DNA of 64,000 nucleotides from Escherichia coli (GTDB taxonomy: Bacteria; Pseudomonadota; Gammaproteobacteria; Enterobacterales; Enterobacteriaceae), in the NCBI RefSeq assembly GCF_009931435.1, contig NZ_CP043414.1. One strand, written 5' to 3'. Made by a program: the position numbers and the translations under genes. The stretch's first letter is position 1; each line of letters begins with the position of its first letter. The notes under the pieces are model-generated. The model saw nothing but the letters and a program-made list of their open reading frames with translations. It had not been told where the DNA came from and searched no databases. Below are positions 9,383 through 51,323 of this stretch, in pieces.

Positions 9383-9590
<208 letters not shown>

Positions 9591-9661
9591 TGTAAATAAC
9601 GACAAAAATAAAATTGGCCGTTTCGGTCAGGGCCAACTATTGCCTGAAAAAGGGTAACGAC

Positions 9662-20565: not shown

Positions 20566-20604
20566 CAGTGCACTGGTAGCTGTTAAGCCAGGGGCGGTAG
20601 CGTG
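20566..20604 (+). promoter_or_regulatory. 39-bp JUMPstart element containing the ops site (RfaH-dependent antitermination signal)
   Basis: cagtgcactggtagctgttaagccaggggcggtagcgtg; ops core ggcggtagcgtg at 20593-20604. Confidence 0.8.
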
Positions 20605-20614
20605 GATTGATGGA

Positions 20615-21436
20615 ATGAAAAATAAGTGCCCACGAATTGCAGTAATAATGTCGGTTTATATTAATGATAAATTTAATGAGTTTAAAGAGGCTTTTGACAG
20701 TATTATTAATCAAACATACTCTAACTTTGTTTTCTTTATTTATGCCGATGGCAAGATAAATCCAGATATTGAAAGTTTTTTGCAAAATTATAATTCGCAA
20801 CATGTGATTTTCATTAGAAGTGAAAAAAATAAGGGATTAGCTTATGCTTTGAATAAATTAATATCAGTGGCGCTAGTTAATAATGAATTTGATTTTATTG
20901 CCAGAATGGATGCTGATGATATAAGTTTAGAAGATAGATTTCAACGACAAATAGATTTTTTTATGGCTAACCCTGAGTTAGATGTTGTTGGTGGGTTGTG
21001 TCAAGAGTTTGGTGGTGAGTCAGCAAGAGAAAAATGCAAGATCTATTTTACAGATGAAGCCATTAAAAACAATGCCTTTAAAAAATGTCCTTTCGTTCAT
21101 CCAACCGTGATGTTTAAATCGTCTGTATTTAATAACGGGATGCGATACCCTGAAAATCAGCCACTGACAGAAGATATGTGCTTATGGCTCGAGTTAATAT
21201 CCGCGAATAAAAAGTTTGCAAATATTGACTCCGTTCTTCTAAAGTACAGAATTAATGAGCAGACGCTAAAAAGAAGAAGAGGTTTGAATAAGGCTGTAAC
21301 CGAATTATCCACAAGATTGTATTACGCCAAGAAACTTAAAATGCTTAGCGTACGGAATTTGTTATATATATTAATCCATTTTGGTGTCAGAGTCCTTCCT
21401 TCAAATATATTTAAACTTGTACATAAGTTAAATTAA
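20615..21436 (+). CDS. O-antigen glycosyltransferase, GT2 family
   Basis: ORF 20522..21436, with the likely start (MKNKCPRIAVIMSVYIND) at 20615 just after ops; DADD motif (ARMDADDISLEDRF); AT-rich. Confidence 0.7.
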   Translation: MKNKCPRIAVIMSVYINDKFNEFKEAFDSIINQTYSNFVFFIYADGKINPDIESFLQNYNSQHVIFIRSEKNKGLAYALNKLISVALVNNEFDFIARMDADDISLEDRFQRQIDFFMANPELDVVGGLCQEFGGESAREKCKIYFTDEAIKNNAFKKCPFVHPTVMFKSSVFNNGMRYPENQPLTEDMCLWLELISANKKFANIDSVLLKYRINEQTLKRRRGLNKAVTELSTRLYYAKKLKMLSVRNLLYILIHFGVRVLPSNIFKLVHKLN

Positions 21437-21437
21437 A

Positions 21438-23204
21438 ATGAATAAAACTGTTTATACATATGATGTATGGGATACTATTTTAAAACGTCATTGTTTACCA
21501 TCATATACGTTAGAGGTTTCGTTGTACTGGCTACTTTTGTATCTTGGAAAACCTGAGAAACATAAGGATGTGTATAAAAAAGTAAAAGCACTGGAGAGTG
21601 ATTTTTTTAATCGAAAAGAAGAATATTTTATTGAAGAGCTTATTGTTGGGATATTAATTGAAAATAATTTAATGAATGGATTTTGCAATAACTCTGTGAC
21701 TGCTGCTTGGGAACAAATATATTATTTCGTAGAGAGAAATTGTACATATAAAAATAAAGAGGTTATAGAGTTAATTGGGAGTGACTATGGGGACAAATTA
21801 TTTATTTCTGATTTTTATACTGACTCCAGTTTCATAAAGAAATTGCTACACCACCACCAAGTATCGGTTTTAGATGGTGTGACGTCAGCTGAGTATGGCG
21901 TCAGTAAGCATATGGGTTCATTGTATGAAAAAATAGAACTATTGAAGCAAAGGAAATGGATCCATACTGGAGATAATGAATTAGCTGATATAAAAATGGC
22001 AAAGCGTGCAGGTGCCCAAGTTAGACTTATAAAATCCAAAAAGAAGAAAATAAATAAGTTAAAAATAAAAAATGACTATGAGCGGTTAGCATTTATTATT
22101 TTGTCCTTTAGCCTGTTTATATTAAAAACTTCCAGAAAGAAAAAGTGCAATAAGATCTACTTTTTTACAAGGGAGGGGGTTTTTTTCAAAAAAAACTTTG
22201 ATCTTCTACTAAACCAAATACCTAACATATTCCCATCTATAACTACGGAAATATTGCCAATCAGTCGAGTAGCCAGCTTAGCATTGAAGTTTAATGAGTC
22301 TGATGAATTTTTAGGATTTAATGATGCATTAACCCAGTATGGCTATGGAGTGTCTACGTTTCTTAGTTTCTTTCATCTTGATGATTGTTACTCCGAGCTC
22401 ACAACAAAGTATCATGATGTAAATGATTTATTATCTCACAGAAATGATCCTTTGGTAAAACAACTAATAAAAAGTATAGAGGATAAAAAAAAACGAACAG
22501 AAAATTTTCTTACATCCATTGAGTTCGATTCTGAGCCAAGTATCATCGTGGATATTGGTTGGCGGGGTAGCATCCAAGATAATTTAATGTCGCGGAAAAA
22601 TAATTATATTCAACATGGATGTTATCTCGGATTGTTTGATTTTTACCCAGGCCAGTCAGGTCAGAATAAATCATCTGTAATTTTTGATAACAACAGATTT
22701 AGACAAAAATGGACCATGAAAGGTGTAGCTTTTATGGAGACGGTTTTCAATGCTTTGGACGGAAGTGTTGTCGATTATGTAAACAATAAACCGAAAAGAA
22801 AAGAAAATTACGCTGAGATAGAAAATTCAAAACATTTAATAGTTATGCAAGATGCTATCATTGAGGAATTTATGAATCTATCTATTATGTTAAAAGAGGG
22901 AAAGTTAAATATCAATGATATTGAAAGATTAGCTATTGAAAGTTACAAAAAAATAGTAACTAACCCATCTAAAGAAATAGCTGATTTTTATGTTGGCAGT
23001 ATCCAAAATGAAAGCTTCGGTTTGAATGATTTTATCGACAAAGAATTTAACATTAGCGCAGTAGATGTTTTCCGAAGTTTTTTTTCTAAAAGTAAAAGAA
23101 ATGAAATAAGAATAAAATTGCATAGAAATGGATGGCGTGAGTCGATACTTAAATCCTCTAAAGTATCGCTGAGCGCAAAATTATGTTCACTTTTAATTAG
23201 ATAA
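21438..23204 (+). CDS. hypothetical 588-aa O-antigen cluster protein; HAD-like N-terminal region plus uncharacterised C-terminal domain
   Basis: Long AT-rich ORF; N-terminus YDVWDTIL and IHTGDNELADIKMAKRAGAQ loosely resemble HAD motifs I and III/IV; hydrophobic segment near residue 215; no family recognised for residues 230-588. Confidence 0.55.
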   Translation: MNKTVYTYDVWDTILKRHCLPSYTLEVSLYWLLLYLGKPEKHKDVYKKVKALESDFFNRKEEYFIEELIVGILIENNLMNGFCNNSVTAAWEQIYYFVERNCTYKNKEVIELIGSDYGDKLFISDFYTDSSFIKKLLHHHQVSVLDGVTSAEYGVSKHMGSLYEKIELLKQRKWIHTGDNELADIKMAKRAGAQVRLIKSKKKKINKLKIKNDYERLAFIILSFSLFILKTSRKKKCNKIYFFTREGVFFKKNFDLLLNQIPNIFPSITTEILPISRVASLALKFNESDEFLGFNDALTQYGYGVSTFLSFFHLDDCYSELTTKYHDVNDLLSHRNDPLVKQLIKSIEDKKKRTENFLTSIEFDSEPSIIVDIGWRGSIQDNLMSRKNNYIQHGCYLGLFDFYPGQSGQNKSSVIFDNNRFRQKWTMKGVAFMETVFNALDGSVVDYVNNKPKRKENYAEIENSKHLIVMQDAIIEEFMNLSIMLKEGKLNINDIERLAIESYKKIVTNPSKEIADFYVGSIQNESFGLNDFIDKEFNISAVDVFRSFFSKSKRNEIRIKLHRNGWRESILKSSKVSLSAKLCSLLIR

Positions 23205-23207
23205 AAT

Positions 23208-24080
23208 ATGAATATTTCAGTAATAATTTGTTGCTATAACTCAGAAAATAGAATCGTAAACACCCTTTTTCATCTTTCACAATGTGTATCTCTATCCAAG
23301 GGGTTAATTGACGAGATTATTCTTGTTGACAATAACTCATCTGATGAAACTGTTAAAACAGCTGAGGATTTTTGGCGTAATACGGGGGAGGAGCAAATCT
23401 TTAAAATTGTTTTTGAATCGATTCCGGGCCTTGTTCATGCTAGACGGCGAGGGCTGGACGAGTCCAAAAATGAGATTGTTGTTTTTTGTGATGATGATAA
23501 TTGGCTGGTACCATCTTATTTTACAAAACTAGAGAAATATTTTGAAAACAAACAAGTAGGCGCTGTCGGGGGACGCGGTATTCCTATTGCTAATACCGTT
23601 ATTCCTGAGTGGTTTTTTGAGAATCTGGATGCATATGCATGTTCTGCACAAACTTCTAACATGTTGTATGGTGCTAGCTTGGCTATTCGGTCTAGTATCT
23701 TAAAAAAATTTTATACGGATGCTTTATCAGTAAAGCTAAAGGGTAGAACAAAAGACAGTCTGGATTCTGGGGAAGATAACTTATTGTGTAATTTTGTCAA
23801 AAAACAAGGATACACTCTGATACCTGACAATACACCATTTTGCCATTTCATGGAAAGCAAGCGATTGGATGTCGATTATCTATATAAACTGGCTGAATCA
23901 TTTGGAAAAGCAACGGCATCAATGAAAAACAATTCCTTCACCACCGATTATGTATATTTGACAGCAAAAATGTTATTAGCTATATCTAGGATCTTCTCTA
24001 AAAAAAATAAAAAGATATATTTAAAACGTGAGATTTCCTTTCTCAGAGGTTATTTGAGGTTTAGAAAGGAATCGAAGTAA
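23208..24080 (+). CDS. O-antigen glycosyltransferase, GT2 family
   Basis: 290-aa ORF; classic GT2 N-terminus MNISVIICCYNSENRI ... ILVDNNSSDET ... FCDDDN. Confidence 0.75.
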   Translation: MNISVIICCYNSENRIVNTLFHLSQCVSLSKGLIDEIILVDNNSSDETVKTAEDFWRNTGEEQIFKIVFESIPGLVHARRRGLDESKNEIVVFCDDDNWLVPSYFTKLEKYFENKQVGAVGGRGIPIANTVIPEWFFENLDAYACSAQTSNMLYGASLAIRSSILKKFYTDALSVKLKGRTKDSLDSGEDNLLCNFVKKQGYTLIPDNTPFCHFMESKRLDVDYLYKLAESFGKATASMKNNSFTTDYVYLTAKMLLAISRIFSKKNKKIYLKREISFLRGYLRFRKESK

Positions 24081-25258
24081 TGAGAGGGGGAATGCTTGTA
24101 ATTGCGTGGTATTCTATTTTTCTGTTGATTTCAGCTACGGGCATGACCGGTCTAAATAAGCTGAGTACTGAAGCTATTCTGTGCTATATTGCATTTTTAT
24201 TCTGTTTTTTCTTTGGCATGATGTTAGGTGGTGTTTCGCTCCCAAACGGAATGAAAATGTTGCAACAGGAGCAAAAGATAAAGAAAAGGCATGCTTCTGC
24301 CATAGTTCTAATTTATTGCTTTTTTATTTTTTATTCTTTAATTGCTCTTTTAAATATATATTATTTCAATAAGGTTGATCTATCATCTTATAGACAAGCA
24401 TTTTTTGATGGTTCAAGAGATAATGTTAAATACTTCTATGGCGTGTTTGGCTTTTACTTCTATTATTTACTTAGCCTGTTAGTATTCGCCTTAGTTCCTT
24501 ATACTATTATAACGAACAGCAAAAAGACTATTTCATTATGTTTCTTTGCCTTGCTGCTATACGATATTATTTTCCTTTCAAGAACTGGTGTTTATTACTT
24601 TATATTATCTTATATAGTATCGAGTATTCTTCTCAAGAAAGGAATCAAGAAAATTATAATTGTAGGGATGGTTGCCTTATTATTCTCATTGATAATGAGT
24701 TACACAAGGGATATGAAGAGTGACATCATTGGTACATTATTTAGCTCAATTATAAATTATCATATAGCTCCGTTTGTCTTGTTTGATGAAAATATAATAT
24801 CAAATCATTTGATTAAATATAATGGGGCTGGCTTGGCATCGTTGGGGATATATAATATCATTTTTTATCCCATTGATTCGTCTATCATGTCATCAATAAA
24901 CGATTTTAGAGCACAGTTGAATGAATTCTATGATTTGGGAGTAAATCGTTATTTGCCATATAATGCCTATTATACTTCTTTGGGTGGGGTATATATAGAT
25001 AGCGGCCTGATTGGTAGCATGATGGTTAGTTTTATGACTGGTTTTATTATTGTCGGAATCGAGAAGAGTGCTTTTAAATCAACTAAGTTCTTAGTCTCTT
25101 CTGTGTTTTTTACTACATTATGTATGGAATCTATATTTTCCCCAATAACACTAAATATTTTTGCCTTTACAATAATTGTCTACTTAGTTGTTTTGATGGT
25201 CCTTAAATATGAAAATAGCGATGATAATACCATCTTTAAAAAATACCGCGCCAAATAA
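24080..25258 (+). CDS. wzy: putative O-antigen polymerase
   Basis: 392-aa highly hydrophobic, Phe/Ile/Tyr-rich multi-TM ORF inside the O-antigen cluster; assignment by elimination (wzx is the other polytopic protein). Confidence 0.55.
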   Translation: MRGGMLVIAWYSIFLLISATGMTGLNKLSTEAILCYIAFLFCFFFGMMLGGVSLPNGMKMLQQEQKIKKRHASAIVLIYCFFIFYSLIALLNIYYFNKVDLSSYRQAFFDGSRDNVKYFYGVFGFYFYYLLSLLVFALVPYTIITNSKKTISLCFFALLLYDIIFLSRTGVYYFILSYIVSSILLKKGIKKIIIVGMVALLFSLIMSYTRDMKSDIIGTLFSSIINYHIAPFVLFDENIISNHLIKYNGAGLASLGIYNIIFYPIDSSIMSSINDFRAQLNEFYDLGVNRYLPYNAYYTSLGGVYIDSGLIGSMMVSFMTGFIIVGIEKSAFKSTKFLVSSVFFTTLCMESIFSPITLNIFAFTIIVYLVVLMVLKYENSDDNTIFKKYRAK

Positions 25259-26234
25259 TATAGCCCTTTCAATATGTGAAGGGGCAAGGAAGCATGGTGT
25301 CAATATAGATATTTATTATCTTGATGAAATTGTAGAGTTGGATATAGACGAGTCAGAACTGAATATAAATAGGCTAAATGATAGAACCATTTTAAACAGT
25401 TATGATATTGTTCACTCTCATGGCTTAAGACCCGATGTTATTAATTGTAAGACCAGCAAAAATGTCATTAATGTAAGTACGCTTCATAGTTTTATTTTAG
25501 ATGATCTTAAGAATAAATATGGAATAAAAGGATATCTGATCGCTTTTGCTTGGCTTAAATTATTAAAGCGATTTGATTCATGTATTGCAATTAGTGAGGC
25601 GACTAAACGGTTTTATGTTAAACATGGTCTTAAATGCCACCATATATATAATGGAATCGACTTTCCTGACATCGAATTATATCAAGATAACTCAAGGCTA
25701 AATAACGGCAAAATAAATATAGTATCGATCGCGCATCTGGAAAAAATAAAAGGCTTAGAGCAACTCCTATATCTAGCCGCGGAGCGAGAAGAGTTCCATG
25801 TTCATATAATTGGTGAAGGAACTTACCGTGGGAAATTAACAAATATTATTGATAAGTTTGATTTATCTCAGCGTGTAACTTTGCATGGATATATATCAAA
25901 TGCGAGTTCTATGTTGGGGAAATTTGATGTTTATGTGCAACCATCTAAAAGTGAGGGGTTTGGCATTGCAGTCATTGAAGCTCTTGTAAATAAAATCCCA
26001 ACAGTTTGCTCAGACATTGAAGTGTTCAGAGAGTTATTTGGCTCAGGAGAAGTTGAATTTTTCAAGTTAGACGATATTAATTCACTTTACGATGCAATTT
26101 CAAGTGCATTAACCAAGACAGATATGTCTCGAGATGCAAGTGCCACAGCGATAAGCCAAAAATTTTCTTCAGAAGTGATGTCATTGAACTATTTAAGTTG
26201 GTATAAAAAATTATATGAAGAAAGAAATTTATAA
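25209..26234 (+). CDS. O-antigen glycosyltransferase, GT4 family
   Basis: 341-aa ORF; GT4 E-x7-E region (SKSEGFGIAVIEALVNKIPTVCSDIEVFRELF). Confidence 0.75.
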   Translation: MKIAMIIPSLKNTAPNNIALSICEGARKHGVNIDIYYLDEIVELDIDESELNINRLNDRTILNSYDIVHSHGLRPDVINCKTSKNVINVSTLHSFILDDLKNKYGIKGYLIAFAWLKLLKRFDSCIAISEATKRFYVKHGLKCHHIYNGIDFPDIELYQDNSRLNNGKINIVSIAHLEKIKGLEQLLYLAAEREEFHVHIIGEGTYRGKLTNIIDKFDLSQRVTLHGYISNASSMLGKFDVYVQPSKSEGFGIAVIEALVNKIPTVCSDIEVFRELFGSGEVEFFKLDDINSLYDAISSALTKTDMSRDASATAISQKFSSEVMSLNYLSWYKKLYEERNL

Positions 26235-27393
26235 ATATGGCACAATAATATTATGCTATGGAATTAACTTTATACTACCTATTCTTTTCTTTAAAGAAAT
26301 AAGTTTAATATTATCTCCAATAGTATTATCATCATTTTTCTTTGTTTTGGCATTGCTAATGTATTGTCAATTCATTGTTGAATACGGGTTGCAAATATCA
26401 TTATTAAGAAAGTTAAATGAAAATAAGAGTGATTTAAGTCGGCTTTTATCTACTATTCTTGGACTAAAAGTAATACTATTCGTCCTATGCGCAGTATTCA
26501 TTTATTGTATTTTGCTATATAATAATGAAGTTATATTTTTTATACTTGTTTTCATTCTGCTAGGAAACGTATTCTCATGCCAGTTCCTCTATCAAGTAGT
26601 TGATCAGCTCCATTTTTTTTATGTATTAAATTCGCTTGTTAAGCTAATTTTCATACCCCTCATTTTTATCAATGATAATTATATCTATCTGATGATATGT
26701 TATAGTTGTTTCAATATCCTACCTAACTTAGCTGCACTTGCTTATTTTTTATATAAGAATAAAGTTAAGGTTGTAAAAGTTCCTGCTTGTGAAATTTATA
26801 ATTTATCTAAGGAATGTTTTAGCTATTTTATCTCGAATATTTCGATAACATTATACACTAATTTTTATCAGATCTTATTAGGCATTATATCGCCCGCTTA
26901 TCTGGCCGCGTATGCATTAAGTGACAAAATTATTAGGGGGATCGTGTCAGGGAATTATGTGTTTATACAGATAGTACAAGTACAATACTTAAATGATGAA
27001 TCAAAGTTCATCAATGGTACATGGAAAACGATTGTTTCATTATTATTACTGGGGGGGATGGAGTTTTTATTTATTTTCTTTGGAGCGGATTTTTTCTCTC
27101 GTTATTTATTCCCTACAATATCTTTACTGCCAATTTTTCTAAAACTAATGTCATTGCTAATTGTTGTTATCTTGTTGAGTAACTTTTTTGCAATGGTTTA
27201 TCTTCCGTGTTCAGGCAATACTTTATTCCTCTCACGTGTTCTGATTTTTGTTTCTATTGTGTCCGTAGTAGTTGCCCCGATACTAATATGGCTCTATGCA
27301 GGTTATGGTGCAGTCATTTCCGCTATATTTTCAGAGTTATTAGTTCTGATTTTATGCTATGGTTTATATTTGAAATTAAAACACAAACTCTAA
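26215..27393 (+). CDS. wzx: putative O-antigen flippase
   Basis: 392-aa polytopic membrane ORF, about 12 predicted TM segments, AT-rich. Confidence 0.65.
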   Translation: MKKEIYKYGTIILCYGINFILPILFFKEISLILSPIVLSSFFFVLALLMYCQFIVEYGLQISLLRKLNENKSDLSRLLSTILGLKVILFVLCAVFIYCILLYNNEVIFFILVFILLGNVFSCQFLYQVVDQLHFFYVLNSLVKLIFIPLIFINDNYIYLMICYSCFNILPNLAALAYFLYKNKVKVVKVPACEIYNLSKECFSYFISNISITLYTNFYQILLGIISPAYLAAYALSDKIIRGIVSGNYVFIQIVQVQYLNDESKFINGTWKTIVSLLLLGGMEFLFIFFGADFFSRYLFPTISLLPIFLKLMSLLIVVILLSNFFAMVYLPCSGNTLFLSRVLIFVSIVSVVVAPILIWLYAGYGAVISAIFSELLVLILCYGLYLKLKHKL

Positions 27394-27415
27394 CTATTAA
27401 CGTAGAATAATTAAA

Positions 27416-27856
27416 ATGAATTTATTGATTGTTTTTTGCTTTTATATTTCGGTTCTGCGTAGTAATAAAATAAGTGTATTTAAATTAATCACTATCACAA
27501 CTGTCTTGATTGTATATGTATTCTGGCTAATAGCCGACAGTTTTACTGGCGTTGGGATAAATGATTCAGTTTATTTCCATATGTTAATGCCGCATGAGGG
27601 GGCATCGGTTGAAAATTTAACATATTATGGATTTCTGATTGTAAGCCTTGTTATTTCAATTTTCTTGATTGCTTATGTTTCTTGGAAAAAGAAGCATAAT
27701 AGAGGATTAAGTAAAAATTACTCTTTTTACGTACTCTTCGCTATTGTATTAGTTACTCCATTTATGCGTAATTTCCTGGGGTCAATTAACAATTTAATTT
27801 CCGAACAGTTTTCTACTGAAGATATAAGTAAAGAGTATGTAATCAATAGTAGGTGA
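27416..27856 (+). pseudogene. 3'-truncated membrane-protein gene, last gene of the O-antigen cluster, interrupted by IS1
   Basis: 146-codon ORF with N-terminal TM helices; its stop codon TGA (27854-27856) lies inside the IS1 left terminal repeat. Confidence 0.6.
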
Positions 27857-27906
27857 TGCTGCCAACTTACTGATTTAGTGTATGATGGTGTTTTTGAGGT
27901 GCTCCA

Positions 27907-28182
27907 GTGGCTTCTGTTTCTATCAGCTGTCCCTCCTGTTCAGCTACTGACGGGGTGGTGCGTAACGGCAAAAGCACCGCCGGACATCAGCGCTATCTCT
28001 GCTCTCACTGCCGTAAAACATGGCAACTGCAGTTCACTTACACCGCTTCTCAACCCGGTACGCACCAGAAAATCATTGATATGGCCATGAATGGCGTTGG
28101 ATGCCGGGCAACCGCCCGCATTATGGGCGTTGGCCTCAACACGATTTTCCGCCATTTAAAAAACTCAGGCCGCAGTCGGTAA
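27907..28182 (+). CDS. insA: IS1 InsA
   Basis: 91-aa [26 protein letters not shown]..., zinc-finger/HTH InsA. Confidence 0.9.
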
Positions 28183-28604
28183 CCTCGCGCATACAGCCGG
28201 GCAGTGACGTCATCGTCTGCGCGGAAATGGACGAACAGTGGGGCTATGTCGGGGCTAAATCGCGCCAGCGCTGGCTGTTTTACGCGTATGACAGGCTCCG
28301 GAAGACGGTTGTTGCGCACGTATTCGGTGAACGCACTATGGCGACGCTGGGGCGTCTTATGAGCCTGCTGTCACCCTTTGACGTGGTGATATGGATGACG
28401 GATGGCTGGCCGCTGTATGAATCCCGCCTGAAGGGAAAGCTGCACGTAATCAGCAAGCGATATACGCAGCGAATTGAGCGGCATAACCTGAATCTGAGGC
28501 AGCACCTGGCACGGCTGGGACGGAAGTCGCTGTCGTTCTCAAAATCGGTGGAGCTGCATGACAAAGTCATCGGGCATTATCTGAACATAAAACACTATCA
28601 ATAA
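28101..28604 (+). CDS. insB: IS1 InsB (expressed as InsAB' by -1 frameshift)
   Basis: 167-aa ORF overlapping insA in the -1 frame, ending ...HYLNIKHYQ. Confidence 0.9.
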
Positions 28605-28990
28605 GTTGGAGTCATTACCGGTTACGAGTAGTGGCATCTGGATTTGATGTGTGTAACATTAATGAGTCGTTAATATTAGCTAGAGTTGGTGATAATATGT
28701 TGGCTAGGCGAAAAGGGCTGAGGTATATAAAAAGTGAATTCCAACTTTATCGGCTAAAAGTTAAACTTGGTTTGCAGTCACATATATCTGGATTCTGCAT
28801 TTTGTTAGTAAGAAGCATTCCGCGATTACTCCCTCTAAAGGTCTTAAAAATTATTTACCAATATATTCGGAAGTAATTATATAATAATTCTGAAGATTGC
28901 ACTCTTATTTTTTCTTAGTTGTATCTTTGTATGTTAACATTACGTTTAAACCGAACCGCTAAGACGGTAATTTCGTGACAGGAGTAAACA

Positions 28991-30397
28991 ATGTCAAAGC
29001 AACAGATCGGCGTAGTCGGTATGGCAGTGATGGGGCGCAACCTTGCGCTCAACATCGAAAGCCGTGGTTATACCGTCTCTATTTTCAACCGTTCCCGTGA
29101 AAAGACGGAAGAAGTGATTGCCGAAAATCCAGGCAAGAAACTGGTTCCTTACTATACGGTGAAAGAGTTTGTTGAATCTCTGGAAACGCCTCGTCGCATC
29201 CTGTTAATGGTGAAAGCAGGTGCTGGCACGGATGCTGCTATTGATTCCATCAAGCCGTACCTCGATAAAGGTGACATCATCATTGATGGTGGTAATACAT
29301 TCTTCCAGGACACCATTCGCCGTAACCGTGAGCTTTCTGCCGAAGGCTTTAACTTCATCGGTACCGGTGTTTCCGGTGGTGAAGAGGGCGCGCTGAAAGG
29401 GCCTTCCATCATGCCTGGTGGGCAGAAAGAAGCCTATGAACTGGTTGCGCCGATCCTGACCAAAATCGCAGCCGTTGCTGAAGATGGCGAACCGTGCGTT
29501 ACCTATATTGGTACCGATGGCGCAGGTCACTATGTGAAGATGGTTCACAACGGTATTGAATATGGCGATATGCAGCTGATTGCTGAAGCCTATTCTCTGC
29601 TTAAAGGTGGCCTGAACCTCACTAACGAAGAACTGGCGCAGACCTTTACCGAGTGGAATAACGGTGAACTGAGTAGCTACCTGATCGACATCACCAAAGA
29701 CATCTTCACCAAAAAAGATGAAGACGGTAACTACCTGGTTGATGTGATTCTGGATGAAGCAGCAAACAAAGGTACCGGTAAATGGACCAGCCAGAGCGCG
29801 CTGGATCTCGGCGAACCGCTGTCGCTGATTACCGAGTCTGTGTTTGCACGTTATATCTCTTCTCTGAAAGAGCAGCGTGTTGCCGCATCTAAAGTTCTCT
29901 CTGGCCCGCAAGCGCAGCCAGCTGGCGACAAAGGTGAGTTCATCGAAAAAGTTCGTCGTGCTCTGTATCTGGGCAAAATCGTTTCTTACGCTCAGGGCTT
30001 CTCTCAGCTGCGTGCTGCGTCTGAAGAGTACAACTGGGATCTGAACTACGGCGAAATCGCGAAAATTTTCCGTGCTGGCTGCATCATCCGTGCGCAGTTC
30101 CTGCAGAAAATCACCGATGCTTATGCCGAAAATCCGCAGATCGCTAACCTGCTGCTGGCTCCGTACTTCAAGCAAATTGCCGATGACTACCAGCAGGCGC
30201 TGCGTGATGTCGTTGCTTATGCAGTACAGAACGGTATCCCGGTTCCGACCTTCGCCGCTGCGGTTGCCTATTACGATAGCTACCGTGCCGCTGTTCTGCC
30301 TGCGAACCTGATCCAGGCACAGCGTGACTATTTCGGTGCACATACTTATAAGCGCATTGATAAAGAAGGTGTGTTCCATACTGAATGGCTGGATTAA
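28991..30397 (+). CDS. gnd: 6-phosphogluconate dehydrogenase, decarboxylating
   Basis: 468-aa [30 protein letters not shown]...; recognised as Gnd. Confidence 0.97.
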
Positions 30398-30423
30398 TCT
30401 GATTTAACCAACAATAAAATTGA

Positions 30424-30455
30424 GGCCCGGCGTATATTGCACCGGGCTTTTTTTT
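30424..30455 (+). terminator. rho-independent terminator downstream of gnd
   Basis: Hairpin gcccggcg-tatattg-caccgggc followed by an 8-T run. Confidence 0.6.
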
Positions 30456-30485
30456 GCCAATTATCTTATAGACTAAATTTCACTG

Positions 30486-30502
30486 CTTAATATTAACTTA
30501 AT
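30486..30502 (+). promoter_or_regulatory. candidate PmrA (BasR) box upstream of ugd
   Basis: cttaat-attaa-cttaat, matching the YTTAAK-N5-YTTAAK direct repeat, about 145 bp upstream of the ugd start. Confidence 0.5.
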
Positions 30503-30636
30503 AAATATCAGCTATTCTTATAAAGAAAATCTGAATTGTTTTTCGTTGCGTTGACCATCTGACAACGTAGCGTTAAAACTTTTAGCTCTAATCAGGATGC
30601 TAAAAACATCATGATTCACAGTTAAGTTAATTCTGA

Positions 30637-31812
<1,176 letters not shown>

Positions 31813-31955
31813 CATCCTGTTATCAGGGCGATTTTCGCCCTGATTCTCTCATGTTCCCTTTGTAATAATTCATTGTTTTTATCATTTATCCTATAGCATT
31901 CATGGCGATTATCGCTAAACTATGGCGACTTAAAATTATTTCGTCCGTTAGGGTA

Positions 31956-32936
31956 ATGATGAGAGTAGAAAATAATAATGTTTCTGGGCAAAACCATGAC
32001 CCGGAACAGATTGATTTGATTGATTTACTGGTGCAGTTGTGGCGTGGCAAGATGACAATTATCATCTCTGTCATTGTTGCTATTGCCCTGGCTATAGGGT
32101 ATCTGGCCGTTGCCAAAGAAAAGTGGACTTCCACAGCTATCGTTACTCAACCTGATGTGGGACAAATCGCTGGTTATAACAATGCCATAAATGTGATTTA
32201 TGGTTCGGCAGCGCCGAAAGTGTCTGAGATCCAGTCGATGTTAATTGGTCGTTTCAGCACGACATTTTCTGCATTAGCAGAAACGCTGGATAATCAGGAA
32301 GAACCTGAAAAACTGACCATTGAGCCTACCGTTAAAAATCAGTCATTACCTTTAGCGGTTTCTTATGTGGGTGAAACACCTGAAGGTGCGCAGAAACAGC
32401 TGGCGCAGTATATCCAGCAAGTTGACGACCAGGTAAATGAAGAACTGGAACAAGACCTGAAAGACAACATCGCGCTGCGTATGAAAAACTTGCAGGATTC
32501 TCTGAAGACGCAGGAAGTGGTCGCTCAAGAACAGAAAGATCTGCGTATCCGTCAGATTCAGGAAGCGTTGCAGTATGCGAATCAGGCGCAGGTGACAAAG
32601 CCGCAGATTCAACAGACACAGGACGTAACCCAGGATACTATGTTCCTTTTGGGGAGCGAAGCGCTGGAGTCGATGATTAAGCACGAAGCGACCCGTCCGT
32701 TGGTGTTCTCATCAAACTACTATCAGACTCGTCAAAACCTGCTGGATATCGACAATCTTGACGTTGATAAACTTGATATTCATGCTTACCGCTATGTAAT
32801 GAAACCGACGTTACCTATTCGTCGCGATAGCCCGAAGAAAGCAATTACCTTGATTCTGGCTGTGCTGCTGGGCGGTATGGTGGGCGCGGGGATTGTGTTG
32901 GGGCGTAACGCACTGCGTAATTACAACGCGAAGTAA
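31956..32936 (+). CDS. wzzB: O-antigen chain-length determinant (polysaccharide co-polymerase)
   Basis: ORF 31902..32936; likely start at the MMRVENNN methionines (31956/31959); N- and C-terminal TM segments flanking a coiled-coil-rich periplasmic domain. Confidence 0.9.
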   Translation: MMRVENNNVSGQNHDPEQIDLIDLLVQLWRGKMTIIISVIVAIALAIGYLAVAKEKWTSTAIVTQPDVGQIAGYNNAINVIYGSAAPKVSEIQSMLIGRFSTTFSALAETLDNQEEPEKLTIEPTVKNQSLPLAVSYVGETPEGAQKQLAQYIQQVDDQVNEELEQDLKDNIALRMKNLQDSLKTQEVVAQEQKDLRIRQIQEALQYANQAQVTKPQIQQTQDVTQDTMFLLGSEALESMIKHEATRPLVFSSNYYQTRQNLLDIDNLDVDKLDIHAYRYVMKPTLPIRRDSPKKAITLILAVLLGGMVGAGIVLGRNALRNYNAK

Positions 32937-33031: not shown

Positions 33032-33636
33032 TCACTGATGCCGTTTACGCAGGTTCTCAATTACCGTCGTTAAATCCAGATCCTGATCCTGCAACAACAC
33101 CAGCAGGTGATACATCAAGTCAGATGCCTCGTTGGTCAGCTCAAAGCGGTCATGTACCGTTGCTGCCAGTGCGGTTTCCACGCCTTCTTCGCCCACTTTC
33201 TGCGCAATGCGTTTGGTGCCGCTGGCATACAGTTTGGCGGTGTAGGAGGTTTCCGGGTCGGCAGATTTACGTTCGGCGAGCAGTTGTTCCAGTTGATGCA
33301 GGAACAGCCACTGGTGAGCGGTGTCGCCGAAGCAGCTGCTGGTGCCTTTGTGGCAGGTTGGCCCGATGGGATTCGCCAGCACCAGTAATGTGTCGTTGTC
33401 GCAGTCCGGCGCAATGCTCACCACATTGAGAAAATTGCCCGAGGTTTCGCCTTTGGTCCACAGTCGCTGTTTAGTGCGCGAGAAGAAGGTGACTTTACCG
33501 CTTTCGATGGTTTTGTCCAGAGCTTCCGGGTTCATGTAGCCCAGCATTAACACTTCGCCAGATACCGCGTGTTGCACAATCACCGGCATCAGTCCGTCGG
33601 TTTTTTCCCAGTCCAGTTCGCGACGTTGTTGTTCTG

Positions 33637-33643
<7 letters not shown>
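33032..33643 (-). CDS. hisI: bifunctional phosphoribosyl-AMP cyclohydrolase / phosphoribosyl-ATP pyrophosphatase
   Basis: 203-aa ORF; last gene of the his operon. Confidence 0.95.
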
Positions 33644-39160
<5,517 letters not shown>

Positions 39161-39165
39161 AGCGA

Positions 39166-40065
39166 TCACTCCATCATCTTCTCAATCGGCAGGACCAGGA
39201 TTGAACTGGCACCCAGCGCTTTCAGTTTTTCCATCGTTTCCCAGAACAGGGTTTCGCTACTCACCATGTGCATCGCTACGCGCTGTTGATCACCCGCCAG
39301 CGGTAGAATAGTTGGGCGTTCGGCACCTGGCAGCAGGGCGATGACTTCATCCAGGCGTTCGGTCGGTGCGTGCATCATGATGTATTTTGATTCGCGCGCC
39401 TGGATAACACCCTGAATACGGGTCAGCAGTTTGTCGATCAGTTGCTGTTTGGATTCTTCCATTTCGCCATCGCGCTGGATCAGGCAGGCTTTCGAGCGGT
39501 AGATAACTTCGACTTCGCGCAGGCCGTTAGCTTCCAGCGTGGCACCGGTGGAAACCAGATCGCAAATCGCATCCGCCAGTCCGGCACGCGGCGCAACTTC
39601 GACAGAGCCGTTCAGTAAGCAGGATTTAAAAGAGATACCTTTCTGGTCGAGATAACGCTTGAGCAGGTGAGGATAAGAGGTGGCGATACGTTTACCATTT
39701 AAGGAGAGCGGACCGTCCCAGGCTTCATCAACCGGCGTTGCCAGCGAAAGGCGGCAGCCGCCGAAATCCAGACGACGCAAGGTAAAGTAGCGCGGATCTT
39801 CACCCTGGGCGCGGCGGTTAAGCAGCTCTTCTTCCAGCACGTTTTCGCCGATAATCCCAAGGTCTACCACGCCGTCCATTACCAGACCGGGAATGTCATC
39901 GTCACGCACGCGCAGAATATCAATCGGCATGTTTTCTGCCATCGCGATCAGGCGCTGGGTGTGAAGATTGATTTTAATGCCACAGCGCGCCAGTAATTCG
40001 CGTGAGTCATCACTTAAACGGCCGGATTTCTGCATAGCTATGCGTAAACGAGTGTTGTCTGTCAT
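39166..40065 (-). CDS. hisG: ATP phosphoribosyltransferase
   Basis: ORF 39166..40104; start [18 protein letters not shown] at 40065 gives 299 aa. Confidence 0.95.
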
Positions 40066-40110
40066 TTTCTTATTCCTCTTTAAACCTGTCTGAACCGTTA
40101 TCAACCGCGC

Positions 40111-40147
40111 AATAAAAAAGCCCCCGGAAGGTGATCTTCCGGGGGCT
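40111..40147 (-). terminator. his attenuator terminator
   Basis: Minus-strand hairpin gcccccggaag-atcac-cttccgggggc followed by a T-run, between hisL and hisG. Confidence 0.85.
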
Positions 40148-40210
40148 TTCTCATGCGTTCATGCACCACTGGAAGATCTGAATGTCTTCCAGCACACATC
40201 GCCTGAAAGA

Positions 40211-40261
40211 CTAGTCAGGATGATGGTGATGATGGTGGTGTTTAAATTGAACGCGTGTCAT
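40211..40261 (-). CDS. hisL: his operon leader peptide
   Basis: Minus-strand ATGACACGCGTTCAATTTAAACACCACCATCATCACCATCATCCTGACTAG encodes MTRVQFKHHHHHHHPD (seven consecutive His codons). Confidence 0.95.
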   Translation of the reverse strand: MTRVQFKHHHHHHHPD

Positions 40262-40510
40262 AAAAGTCTCTGTGAATGTTTATTCAACTGATGTCTTTTA
40301 ACCTAAACCACTTTCACGTTAGAAAGCAAGGGCTTTTTTATATATTTTATGGCGATGGATTTGTTTAATGAATGAGCGGGAAAAGGAGGGGGCTAAGAGG
40401 ACTGTCCTCTAACTTGACAGCACCAAAAAGAGCAAAGTCTGATTTTTCGTCTCGCTGGCAATGTCTTGATCTACAAACTAATTAATAAATAGTGAATTAA
40501 CACCCATCAT

Positions 40511-40528
40511 TGTACAATGAACTGTACA
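40511..40528 (+). promoter_or_regulatory. yefM-yoeB operator (paired TGTACA motifs)
   Basis: tgtacaatgaactgtaca immediately upstream of the yefM ribosome-binding site (agaggag) and start codon. Confidence 0.6.
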
Positions 40529-40543
40529 AAAGAGGAGATTTAC

Positions 40544-40795
40544 ATGCGTACAATTAGCTACAGCGAAGCGCGTCAGAATTTGTCGGCAACAATGATGAAA
40601 GCCGTTGAAGATCATGCCCCGATCCTCATTACTCGTCAGAATGGAGAGGCTTGTGTTCTGATGTCACTCGAAGAATACAACTCGCTGGAAGAGACGGCTT
40701 ATCTACTGCGTTCCCCCGCTAACGCCCGGAGATTGATGGACTCAATCGATAGCCTGAAATCAGGCAAAGGAACGGAAAAGGACATTATTGAGTGA
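40544..40795 (+). CDS. yefM: antitoxin YefM
   Basis: ORF 40517..40795; start [21 protein letters not shown] at 40544 gives 83 aa. Confidence 0.95.
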
Positions 40796-41046
40796 AACTA
40801 ATCTGGTCTGAGGAATCATGGGATGATTATCTGTACTGGCAGGAAACAGATAAGCGAATTGTTAAAAAGATCAATGAACTTATCAAAGATACCCGCAGAA
40901 CACCATTTGAAGGTAAGGGGAAACCAGAACCCCTGAAACATAATTTGTCAGGTTTCTGGTCCCGACGCATTACAGAGGAGCACCGTCTGGTATACGCGGT
41001 TACTGATGATTCACTGCTCATTGCAGCATGTCGTTATCATTATTGA
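40792..41046 (+). CDS. yoeB: toxin YoeB (ribosome-dependent mRNA interferase)
   Basis: 84-aa ORF overlapping the yefM stop (ATGA). Confidence 0.95.
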
Positions 41047-42928: not shown

Positions 42929-43194
42929 AGAAAAATTATTATGACAAGCCTCTCATTCTCTTGTCATTTCCCCCCCATTTAGGCACAATGCGCCGCTGTC
43001 AAAAAATGACTAAAAACCGACGTTTAATTAGCGTCGGTTATTTTTTGCTTCAAACCAATCATTCATACCAAGAGGCCGGGCTTCGTACCGGATAGATATT
43101 TACTAAAAATCGACAGTTGTTGTCGCTGAGGAATCCAAAAAAATGGGGCAATTTTTTGCTTACGCGACGGTTATCACCGTAAAGGAGAATGACC

Positions 43195-49664: not shown

Positions 49665-50722
49665 GTGCGTGCCGATAAGTCATTAAGCCCGTTTGAAATC
49701 CGGGTATACCGCCATTACCGCATTGTGCATGGTACTCGGGTCGCGCTGGCATTCCTGCTCACTTTTCTCATTATCCGCCTGTTTACTATCCCGGAAAGCA
49801 CCTGGCCGCTGGTCACCATGGTGGTGATTATGGGGCCAATCTCGTTCTGGGGTAACGTTGTCCCTCGCGCCTTCGAACGTATTGGCGGTACGGTGTTGGG
49901 TTCGATTTTAGGTCTTATCGCTCTGCAACTGGAGTTAATTTCGTTACCGCTGATGTTAGTCTGGTGCGCGGCGGCTATGTTTCTTTGCGGTTGGCTGGCG
50001 CTGGGCAAGAAACCGTATCAAGGATTATTGATTGGGGTGACGCTGGCAATTGTTGTGGGTTCCCCGACAGGTGAAATTGATACGGCGTTATGGCGAAGCG
50101 GCGATGTGATCCTCGGCTCTTTACTGGCAATGTTGTTTACCGGTATCTGGCCACAACGGGCGTTCATCCACTGGCGCATTCAACTGGCGAAAAGTCTGAC
50201 CGAGTATAATCGGGTTTATCAATCTGCATTCTCACCGAACTTACTCGAACGCCCACGTCTGGAAAGCCATCTACAAAAACTCCTGACCGATGCCGTGAAA
50301 ATGCGTGGGCTGATTGCGCCCGCCAGCAAAGAAACTCGTATTCCAAAATCGATATATGAAGGTATCCAGACCATTAACCGCAATCTGGTTTGTATGCTGG
50401 AGTTGCAAATCAATGCATACTGGGCCACGCGCCCCAGCCATTTCGTGTTATTGAACGCGCAAAACTTCGTGATACCCAGCACATGATGCAGCAAATACTG
50501 CTGAGCCTTGTTCATGCGCTGTACGAAGGTAATCCGCAGCCGGTTTTTGCCAATACGGAAAAATTGAACGATGCTGTGGAAGAGCTGCGTCAGTTGCTGA
50601 ATAACCACCATGACCTGAAGGTTGTGGAAACACCAATCTATGGTTATGTGTGGCTGAACATGGAAACGGCACATCAGCTTGAGTTGCTATCGAGTCTGAT
50701 TTGCCGGGCCTTGCGCAAATAA
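49665..50722 (+). pseudogene. yeeA: yeeA (FUSC-family membrane protein), apparently frameshifted
   Basis: Two overlapping ORFs in different frames (49665..50486 and 50390..50722) together span 1058 nt, one base short of an intact 352-aa-plus-stop reading frame. Confidence 0.6.
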
Positions 50723-50893
50723 TTCCTGAACTTCAGAATCATCTTGCTGCTGCTTCGATTCAGCAAGGATAAAGGGTATGATAGTGAAAAGGGATAAAAG
50801 CATTGTCATCTGCGGCAGCTATGAGTAATGTTGGCCCTAACGAATAGCGGTTGCTTAAACGAATCCGACTCTCACATTATCAGGGGTATAAAA

Positions 50894-51223
50894 ATGGAAA
50901 CTACCAAGCCTTCATTCCAGGACGTACTGGAATTTGTTCGTCTGTTCCGTCGTAAGAACAAACTGCAACGTGAAATTCAGGACGTTGAGAAAAAGATCCG
51001 TGACAACCAGAAGCGCGTCCTGTTGCTGGACAACCTGAGCGATTACATCAAGCCCGGGATGAGCGTTGAAGCAATCCAGGGCATCATCGCCAGCATGAAA
51101 GGTGACTATGAAGATCGCGTTGACGATTACATCATCAAAAATGCCGAGCTCTCCAAAGAACGCCGCGATATCTCCAAAAAGCTGAAAGCTATGGGCGAAA
51201 TGAAAAACGGCGAAGCGAAGTAA
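50894..51223 (+). CDS. yeeX: UPF0265/DUF496 protein YeeX
   Basis: ORF 50828..51223; start [14 protein letters not shown] at 50894 gives 109 aa. Confidence 0.85.
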
Positions 51224-51323
51224 TTCCTGTTTTATTCAATGAGGGTTGCCCGGCAACCCTCATTGCTCATTGATTCTTATCTGTGTATCACCGTCATCAT
51301 TCTCATCTGAGAACCTATCGAAA

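Follow-up and report, generated by a model that had tools for sequence, protein, structure and literature searches.

Genomic context of the his operon

The analysed sequence, referred to as the window, is a 64-kb (64,000 nt) stretch of Escherichia coli DNA, and all positions are given relative to its first base. It contains the histidine biosynthesis operon on the minus strand, preceded by the leader open reading frame hisL and by a group of RNA segments that can pair with each other in two alternative ways (Table 1). The hisG start codon (ATG at 40065) lies 46 nt past position 40111, the end of the leader terminator, and is oriented in the same direction as the leader; an identical sequence is annotated as hisG in RefSeq. 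The HisG protein scored 193.4 bits against the NCBIfam model TIGR00070 (cut-off 75.75) and 114.2 bits against TIGR03455 (cut-off 40.05). Each of the products HisG, HisD, HisC, HisB (bifunctional), HisH, HisA, HisF and HisIE scores higher than the curated threshold of the NCBIfam model that fits it best, and the order of the genes agrees with the RefSeq annotation. At the sequence level, the genes for histidine biosynthesis and their control region are intact in this strain.

Upstream of hisL, and diverging from it, the intact toxin-antitoxin pair yefM-yoeB occupies positions 40517-41046 of the plus strand. In strain 504239, whose his leader is otherwise identical, an IS2 element is found between yoeB and yefM, and the intergenic neighbourhood therefore varies among strains. 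Further along, downstream of yeeY, the small RNA STnc240 was matched above the Rfam gathering score at 42974-43048 (plus strand). Two other Rfam matches above the gathering score are naRNA4 at 9451-9521 (minus strand) and algC RNA at 9608-9657 (plus strand).

On the other side of the operon, a JUMPstart element (20566-20604, plus strand) heads an apparent O-antigen gene cluster spanning 20566-32936. This region includes plus-strand open reading frames with the sizes of gnd (28991-30397), ugd (30646-31812) and wzzB (31902-32936), convergent with the end of the his operon; the names are derived from the RefSeq neighbourhood and from the sizes of the reading frames. A cluster of mobile elements is located at 50500-58500 (plus strand), and at least 80% of this stretch is present in one place in only 18 of 5,426 complete E. 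coli genomes. The cluster comprises an IS3-family element with an ALIL frameshift pseudoknot (52182-52298), annotated as IS629-like in matching genomes, and a group II intron with an ltrA reverse transcriptase/maturase reading frame (53298-54821) and an Rfam intron domain (54825-54911). Annotations in the cluster further include an IS110-family transposase and a CbtA-family toxin.

Table 1. Features of the his leader region and adjacent genes, in window coordinates
Feature	Position	Strand	Description
yoeB	40792-41046	plus	upstream neighbour, diverges from hisL
yefM	40517-40795	plus	upstream neighbour, diverges from hisL
Probable his primary promoter	40329-40300	minus	sequence read directly; hexamers assigned after the his promoter literature
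hisL leader ORF	40261-40211	minus	16 codons and UAG stop; translation MTRVQFKHHHHHHHPD*
Seven consecutive His codons	40240-40220	minus	CAC CAC CAT CAT CAC CAT CAT
Segment A	40228-40214	minus	shares sequence with His codons 5-7 and with the codons for Pro and Asp; pairs with B if free of ribosome
his pause hairpin	40219-40202	minus	inner part of A:B; stem CCUGA/UCAGG, 8-nt loop; present in MFE fold and Rfam consensus
Segment B	40211-40193	minus	partner A or C
his pause site	40200-40190	minus	G-10 = 40200, U-1 = 40191 (presumed 3' end of paused RNA), G+1 = 40190
Segment C	40192-40184	minus	CUGGAAGAC; partner B or D
Segment D	40178-40169	minus	GAUCUUCCAG; partner C (terminating state) or E (antiterminator)
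Terminator hairpin E:F	40149-40117	minus	AAAGCCCCCGGAAG-AUCAC-CUUCCGGGGGCUUU; GC-rich, 14 bp
Segment E	40149-40133	minus	5' terminator arm; the GGAAGAUC part also pairs with D
Segment F	40130-40117	minus	3' terminator arm; U-run and AUU extend to 40111
U-run	40119-40114	minus	UUUUUU, followed by AUU to 40111; tail reads UUUUUUAUU
hisG	40065..39166	minus	ATP phosphoribosyltransferase, 299 aa; first structural gene under attenuator control
hisD, hisC, hisB, hisH, hisA, hisF, hisIE	39160..33032	minus	all full-length

Identification of the hisL leader and its terminator

The his attenuator is a founding example of both transcription attenuation and hairpin-dependent pausing. The original prediction for this DNA, made from the sequence alone, was that the minus strand encodes a leader peptide with seven histidines, followed before hisG by a GC-rich hairpin and a run of T at 40111-40147, in the classic attenuation arrangement. 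Reading of the minus strand across 39900-40500 places the ATG of hisL at 40261, and the peptide is encoded as foreseen. The run of seven consecutive CAY codons is unique in the 64-kb window, and no such run arose in 100 shuffles that preserve dinucleotide composition. By analogy with the characterised his leaders, these would be the regulatory codons that sense the charging of His-tRNA.

The hairpin with its U-run extends from 40149 to 40111, between the leader reading frame and hisG, so that the predicted range was right to within two bases. This terminator was not reported by a simple terminator scan of positions 39900-40700, probably because the stem, when extended as far as A-U and G-U pairs allow, consumes the T-run that is required after it.

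The arrangement was recognised as a whole in a scan of the entire window at gathering threshold, in which the Rfam family RF00514 (His_leader) matched at 40235-40112 of the minus strand with 131.6 bits (gathering score 49, E = 1.4e-21), covering model positions 1-126 of 126. A query with the 401-nt region matched 5,423 of 5,426 complete E. coli genomes, in many cases at 100% identity, and the RefSeq labels on the matching genomes are hisL, his operon leader peptide (the label carried by the identical leader reading frame), His leader region and hisG. Together with identity to the leader of strain K-12 described below, these labels and the full-model match bear out the classic arrangement. It had also been stated that the leader confirms the orientation and the integrity of the operon. 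hisG is co-oriented with the leader; integrity does not follow from the leader by itself and is shown separately by the full-length hisGDCBHAFI genes.

Probable promoter and pause site

Upstream of hisL, a -35-like TTGCTT (40329-40324) and a -10-like TAGGTT (40305-40300) are separated by an 18-nt spacer, and these are probably the hexamers of the his promoter. An A+T-rich stretch at 40350-40333 lies upstream of this candidate promoter. No promoter site was returned by a simple sigma-70 scan of 39900-40700, since TAGGTT has no more than 3 of its 6 bases in common with TATAAT.

Within the leader, the bases of the G-10/Y-1/G+1 pause consensus were checked and found to be present. Counted from the pause site, the pause hairpin occupies positions -29 to -12, and its base is 11 nt from the 3' end of the paused RNA; the assignment of U40191 as the paused nucleotide is our assumption, based on the his pause literature. 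The published description of the hisL pause gives the same G-10/Y-1/G+1 consensus and a hairpin at -30 to -11 (PMC9291695). On its sequence, the putative pause element thus has the features of a class I (hairpin-dependent) his pause and matches that description.

Alternative RNA structures

The minimum free energy (MFE) of the 186-nt leader is -70.4 kcal/mol, compared with a mean of -42.1 ± 3.75 kcal/mol for 200 shuffled sequences (z = -7.55), none of which was as stable. The MFE fold consists of the three hairpins A:B, C:D and E:F, in agreement with the Rfam consensus. When the hairpins were evaluated in isolation, the energies were -11.7 kcal/mol for A:B, -10.6 for B:C (a hairpin of 9 core bp), -9.9 for C:D, -15.2 for D:E and -26.9 for E:F, the last being by far the most stable helix. 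The predicted energies of the hairpins are closely balanced, as a switch requires.

When the full-length leader was folded at equilibrium with the ribosome represented as a mask, E:F was returned whatever the position of the ribosome, a consequence of the far greater stability of this helix, and the approach was discarded as a test for the antiterminator. It follows that the antiterminator can exist only as a kinetic, co-transcriptional state and that the switch must be a kinetic one. Masked full-length folding was replaced by the folding of nascent transcripts at successive cut points, in which the footprint of the ribosome extended 13 nt beyond the first base of the codon in the A site.

In the MFE structures of the nascent transcripts, absence of a ribosome gave A:B (12 bp) and C:D (7-8 bp), followed by E:F (14 bp). 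When any of His codons 1-6 occupied the A site, the helices formed once segment E was out and F was not yet transcribed were B:C (9 bp) and D:E (8-9 bp), while a ribosome at His codon 7 led to C:D. For a ribosome that had reached the stop codon, C:D was formed when D had emerged and D:E when E had emerged, at which point D:E is, at equilibrium, more stable than C:D by 1.2 kcal/mol. In this model, termination with the ribosome at the stop codon would depend on the order of folding and on release of the ribosome.

The folding of alternative structures had been proposed as a check on the original prediction, and it gave the terminator state without a stall and the antiterminator (B:C with D:E) with a stall at His codons 1-6. 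As thermodynamic predictions only, the nascent folds reproduce the classic A-F attenuation model, in which the mutually exclusive pairings B:C and D:E are predicted to sequester the 5' arm of the terminator when the ribosome is on the His codons. In Salmonella, where the leader tested agrees with that of the window up to and including segment E and in the terminator stem, a stop codon introduced at any of the His positions de-attenuates in vivo, most strongly at His4-His6, and a block of translation leads to termination that depends on E:F (PMC4046918). The positions of the de-attenuating stop codons agree with the stall positions that gave the antiterminator in the folding reported here.

Conservation among Enterobacteriaceae

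A collection of species-representative genomes was scanned with a DNA pattern for K-H7-P-D, which identified 76 loci, almost all of them in Enterobacteriaceae. One hit in a Bacteroidia MAG was a chance run of His codons in unrelated sequence with no attenuator and was excluded, as were five loci cut by contig ends. The resulting alignment (A1) comprises 55 distinct leaders of 162 nt, of which 34 encode the peptide MTRVQFKHHHHHHHPD. A variant hisL is present in E. coli strain E69 (locus L020, 6898-7059), where codon 2 is changed from ACA to GTA and the peptide reads MVRVQFKHHHHHHHPD; the remainder of that leader is identical.

Both sets of helices are retained across the 55 leaders. For the terminating structure, paired bases occupy 100% of alignment cells in A:B and C:D and about 99% in the core of E:F, whose pairs are kept in 54-55 of the leaders; for the antiterminator, the values are 100% in B:C and 99.2% in D:E. 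The stems are nearly invariant, and a single pair, in the outer part of E:F, is altered on both sides. Covariation analysis of the same 55 leaders gave no measure above shuffled alignments, and because the stems are nearly invariant this result has no bearing on the structures either way. Variation is located in the loops and linkers, with a mean column identity of 0.967 at paired positions versus 0.817 at unpaired ones (Mann-Whitney p = 5e-6). Such a distribution is consistent with both structures, and it is no proof of them.

The sole frequent substitution in a stem is an A/G polymorphism across genera in segment C (column 76 of A1, position 40188 of the window), with A in 39 leaders and G in 16. 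The change from A to G leaves a standard pair in C:D (G-U) and in B:C (U-G) alike, which is what a constrained base with two partners would allow. At the end of the terminator (columns 145-155 of A1, 40111-40119 in the window), Escherichia leaders carry UUUUUUAUU, as do three Mangrovibacter leaders, in which the tail is a different one. Most other genera of Enterobacteriaceae have eight uninterrupted U at this place.

Comparison with known attenuators

From the promoter region through the terminator to the ribosome-binding region of hisG, the window is identical base for base to hisL (b2018) of E. coli K-12 MG1655. The stretch from the promoter region to the start of hisG contains two single-base differences, both outside the promoter hexamers, the leader and the attenuator. 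At 40069, in the spacer that separates the ATG of hisG from its Shine-Dalgarno sequence, the window has G and K-12 has C, which is probably a neutral polymorphism; the other difference, C in the window against T in K-12, lies further upstream than the -35 region, at a distance of about 50 nt.

The leader of Salmonella enterica subsp. diarizonae is identical to that of the window in its peptide and in segments A-F, and S. enterica shares the mechanism and the pause site. The attenuator RNAs differ only in one base of the terminator loop (AUCAU, compared with AUCAC here) and in the U-run, which in diarizonae consists of eight uninterrupted U, compared with UUUUUUAUU here, whereas the 5' untranslated region and the spacer before hisG have diverged.

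The attenuators of trpL, pheL, leuL, thrL and ilvL work by the same logic as hisL: each has a short leader reading frame in which the cognate codons are abundant, a hairpin for pausing, antiterminator and terminator helices that exclude each other and, ahead of the first biosynthetic gene, an intrinsic terminator. Their regulatory codons and sequences differ from those of hisL, and the his leader has six segments (A-F) and seven consecutive regulatory codons, compared with four segments and two Trp codons in trp. To our knowledge, the his operon has no repressor. Ribosome-mediated amino-acid attenuators of enterobacteria are further treated in PMC9291695.

For the S. enterica his attenuator, the model of A:B, C:D and E:F versus B:C and D:E has been tested in vivo, and both the response of readthrough to the charging of His-tRNA and the requirement for translation of the leader have been shown experimentally in Salmonella (PMC4046918). 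Given the identity of the window with the K-12 sequence, the same response and the same requirement are to be expected here. Published experiments on identical or near-identical sequence likewise suggest how the element would respond, and how the polymerase would pause on it, in vivo.

Interpretation and alternative explanations

These data identify the element, with a probability that we put at about 0.97, as the native ribosome-mediated transcription attenuator of the E. coli hisLGDCBHAFI operon. A different control of the same leader has been put forward for E. coli K-12, which shares its leader sequence with the window, namely a DnaA-dependent riboswitch in which attenuation is governed mainly or additionally by binding of DnaA to 'rDnaA boxes' in the leader RNA, and not by the position of the ribosome alone (PMC10989985, 2023). 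DnaA-box-like 9-mers do occur at the described places: at 40247-40237 of the minus strand, two overlapping ones immediately precede the His codons, and a third lies between C:D and E:F (40159-40167), as in PMC10989985. However, each of them carries two mismatches to TTWTNCACA, and the leader region contains 6 such matches where 3.9 are expected from the density in the whole window (Poisson P = 0.19), which is not above chance. Binding of DnaA was reported in vivo, not in vitro, and the authors' own word for their model is 'possible' (PMC10989985), whereas the classical model already explains the in vivo data (PMC4046918). We therefore regard control by DnaA as unlikely. A second, protein-dependent layer, in which DnaA, possibly together with tRNA-His, would act on degenerate boxes flanking the His codons and in the D-E linker and so bias D:E against E:F, is about as doubtful. 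It has already been proposed for the identical K-12 sequence (PMC10989985) and, if true, would leave the identity of the element unchanged.

Readings in which the leader has no regulatory role fit the data far less well. That it is a decayed or inactive relic, no longer regulating, is very improbable in view of its identity, from promoter through terminator, to the experimentally characterised K-12 leader, of the full-length Rfam match, of its presence in 5,423 of the 5,426 genomes and of the intact operon downstream. E:F is by itself a strong intrinsic terminator (-26.9 kcal/mol), and the hairpin and U-run could in principle terminate transcription of a neighbouring gene, the His-rich reading frame being incidental. 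Yet no gene ends there, and with yefM and yoeB on the opposite, plus strand, diverging from hisL, the hairpin cannot be the terminator of another gene; the run of seven His codons, moreover, never appeared in the shuffles, and conservation across genera extends to segments B, C and D and to the mutually exclusive pairings that they form. This explanation is hardly credible.

Under the attenuator reading, transcription would start about 30 nt upstream of hisL, and RNA polymerase would pause at U40191 behind the pause hairpin, allowing time for the loading of a ribosome on hisL. With an ample supply of charged His-tRNA, this ribosome would pass the seven His codons and reach the UAG codon, covering A and B; C would then pair with D, leaving E free for F, and E:F with the U-run would terminate transcription before hisG. 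When His-tRNA is scarce, a ribosome stalled on the His codons would cover A only, so that B:C and D:E could form, and D:E would sequester the 5' terminator arm while the polymerase crosses the U-run, resulting in readthrough into hisG. If the leader is not translated at all, A:B, C:D and E:F would be expected to form and termination to be maximal.

The element is an ordinary, intact and already known E. coli hisL attenuator, and nothing in it departs from the K-12 reference. Its identity to the K-12 leader implies that the window is part of the E. coli chromosome. The leader thereby anchors the annotation of this region, with a minus-strand his operon situated between the O-antigen/gnd/ugd/wzzB cluster and yefM-yoeB/yeeZ/yeeY.
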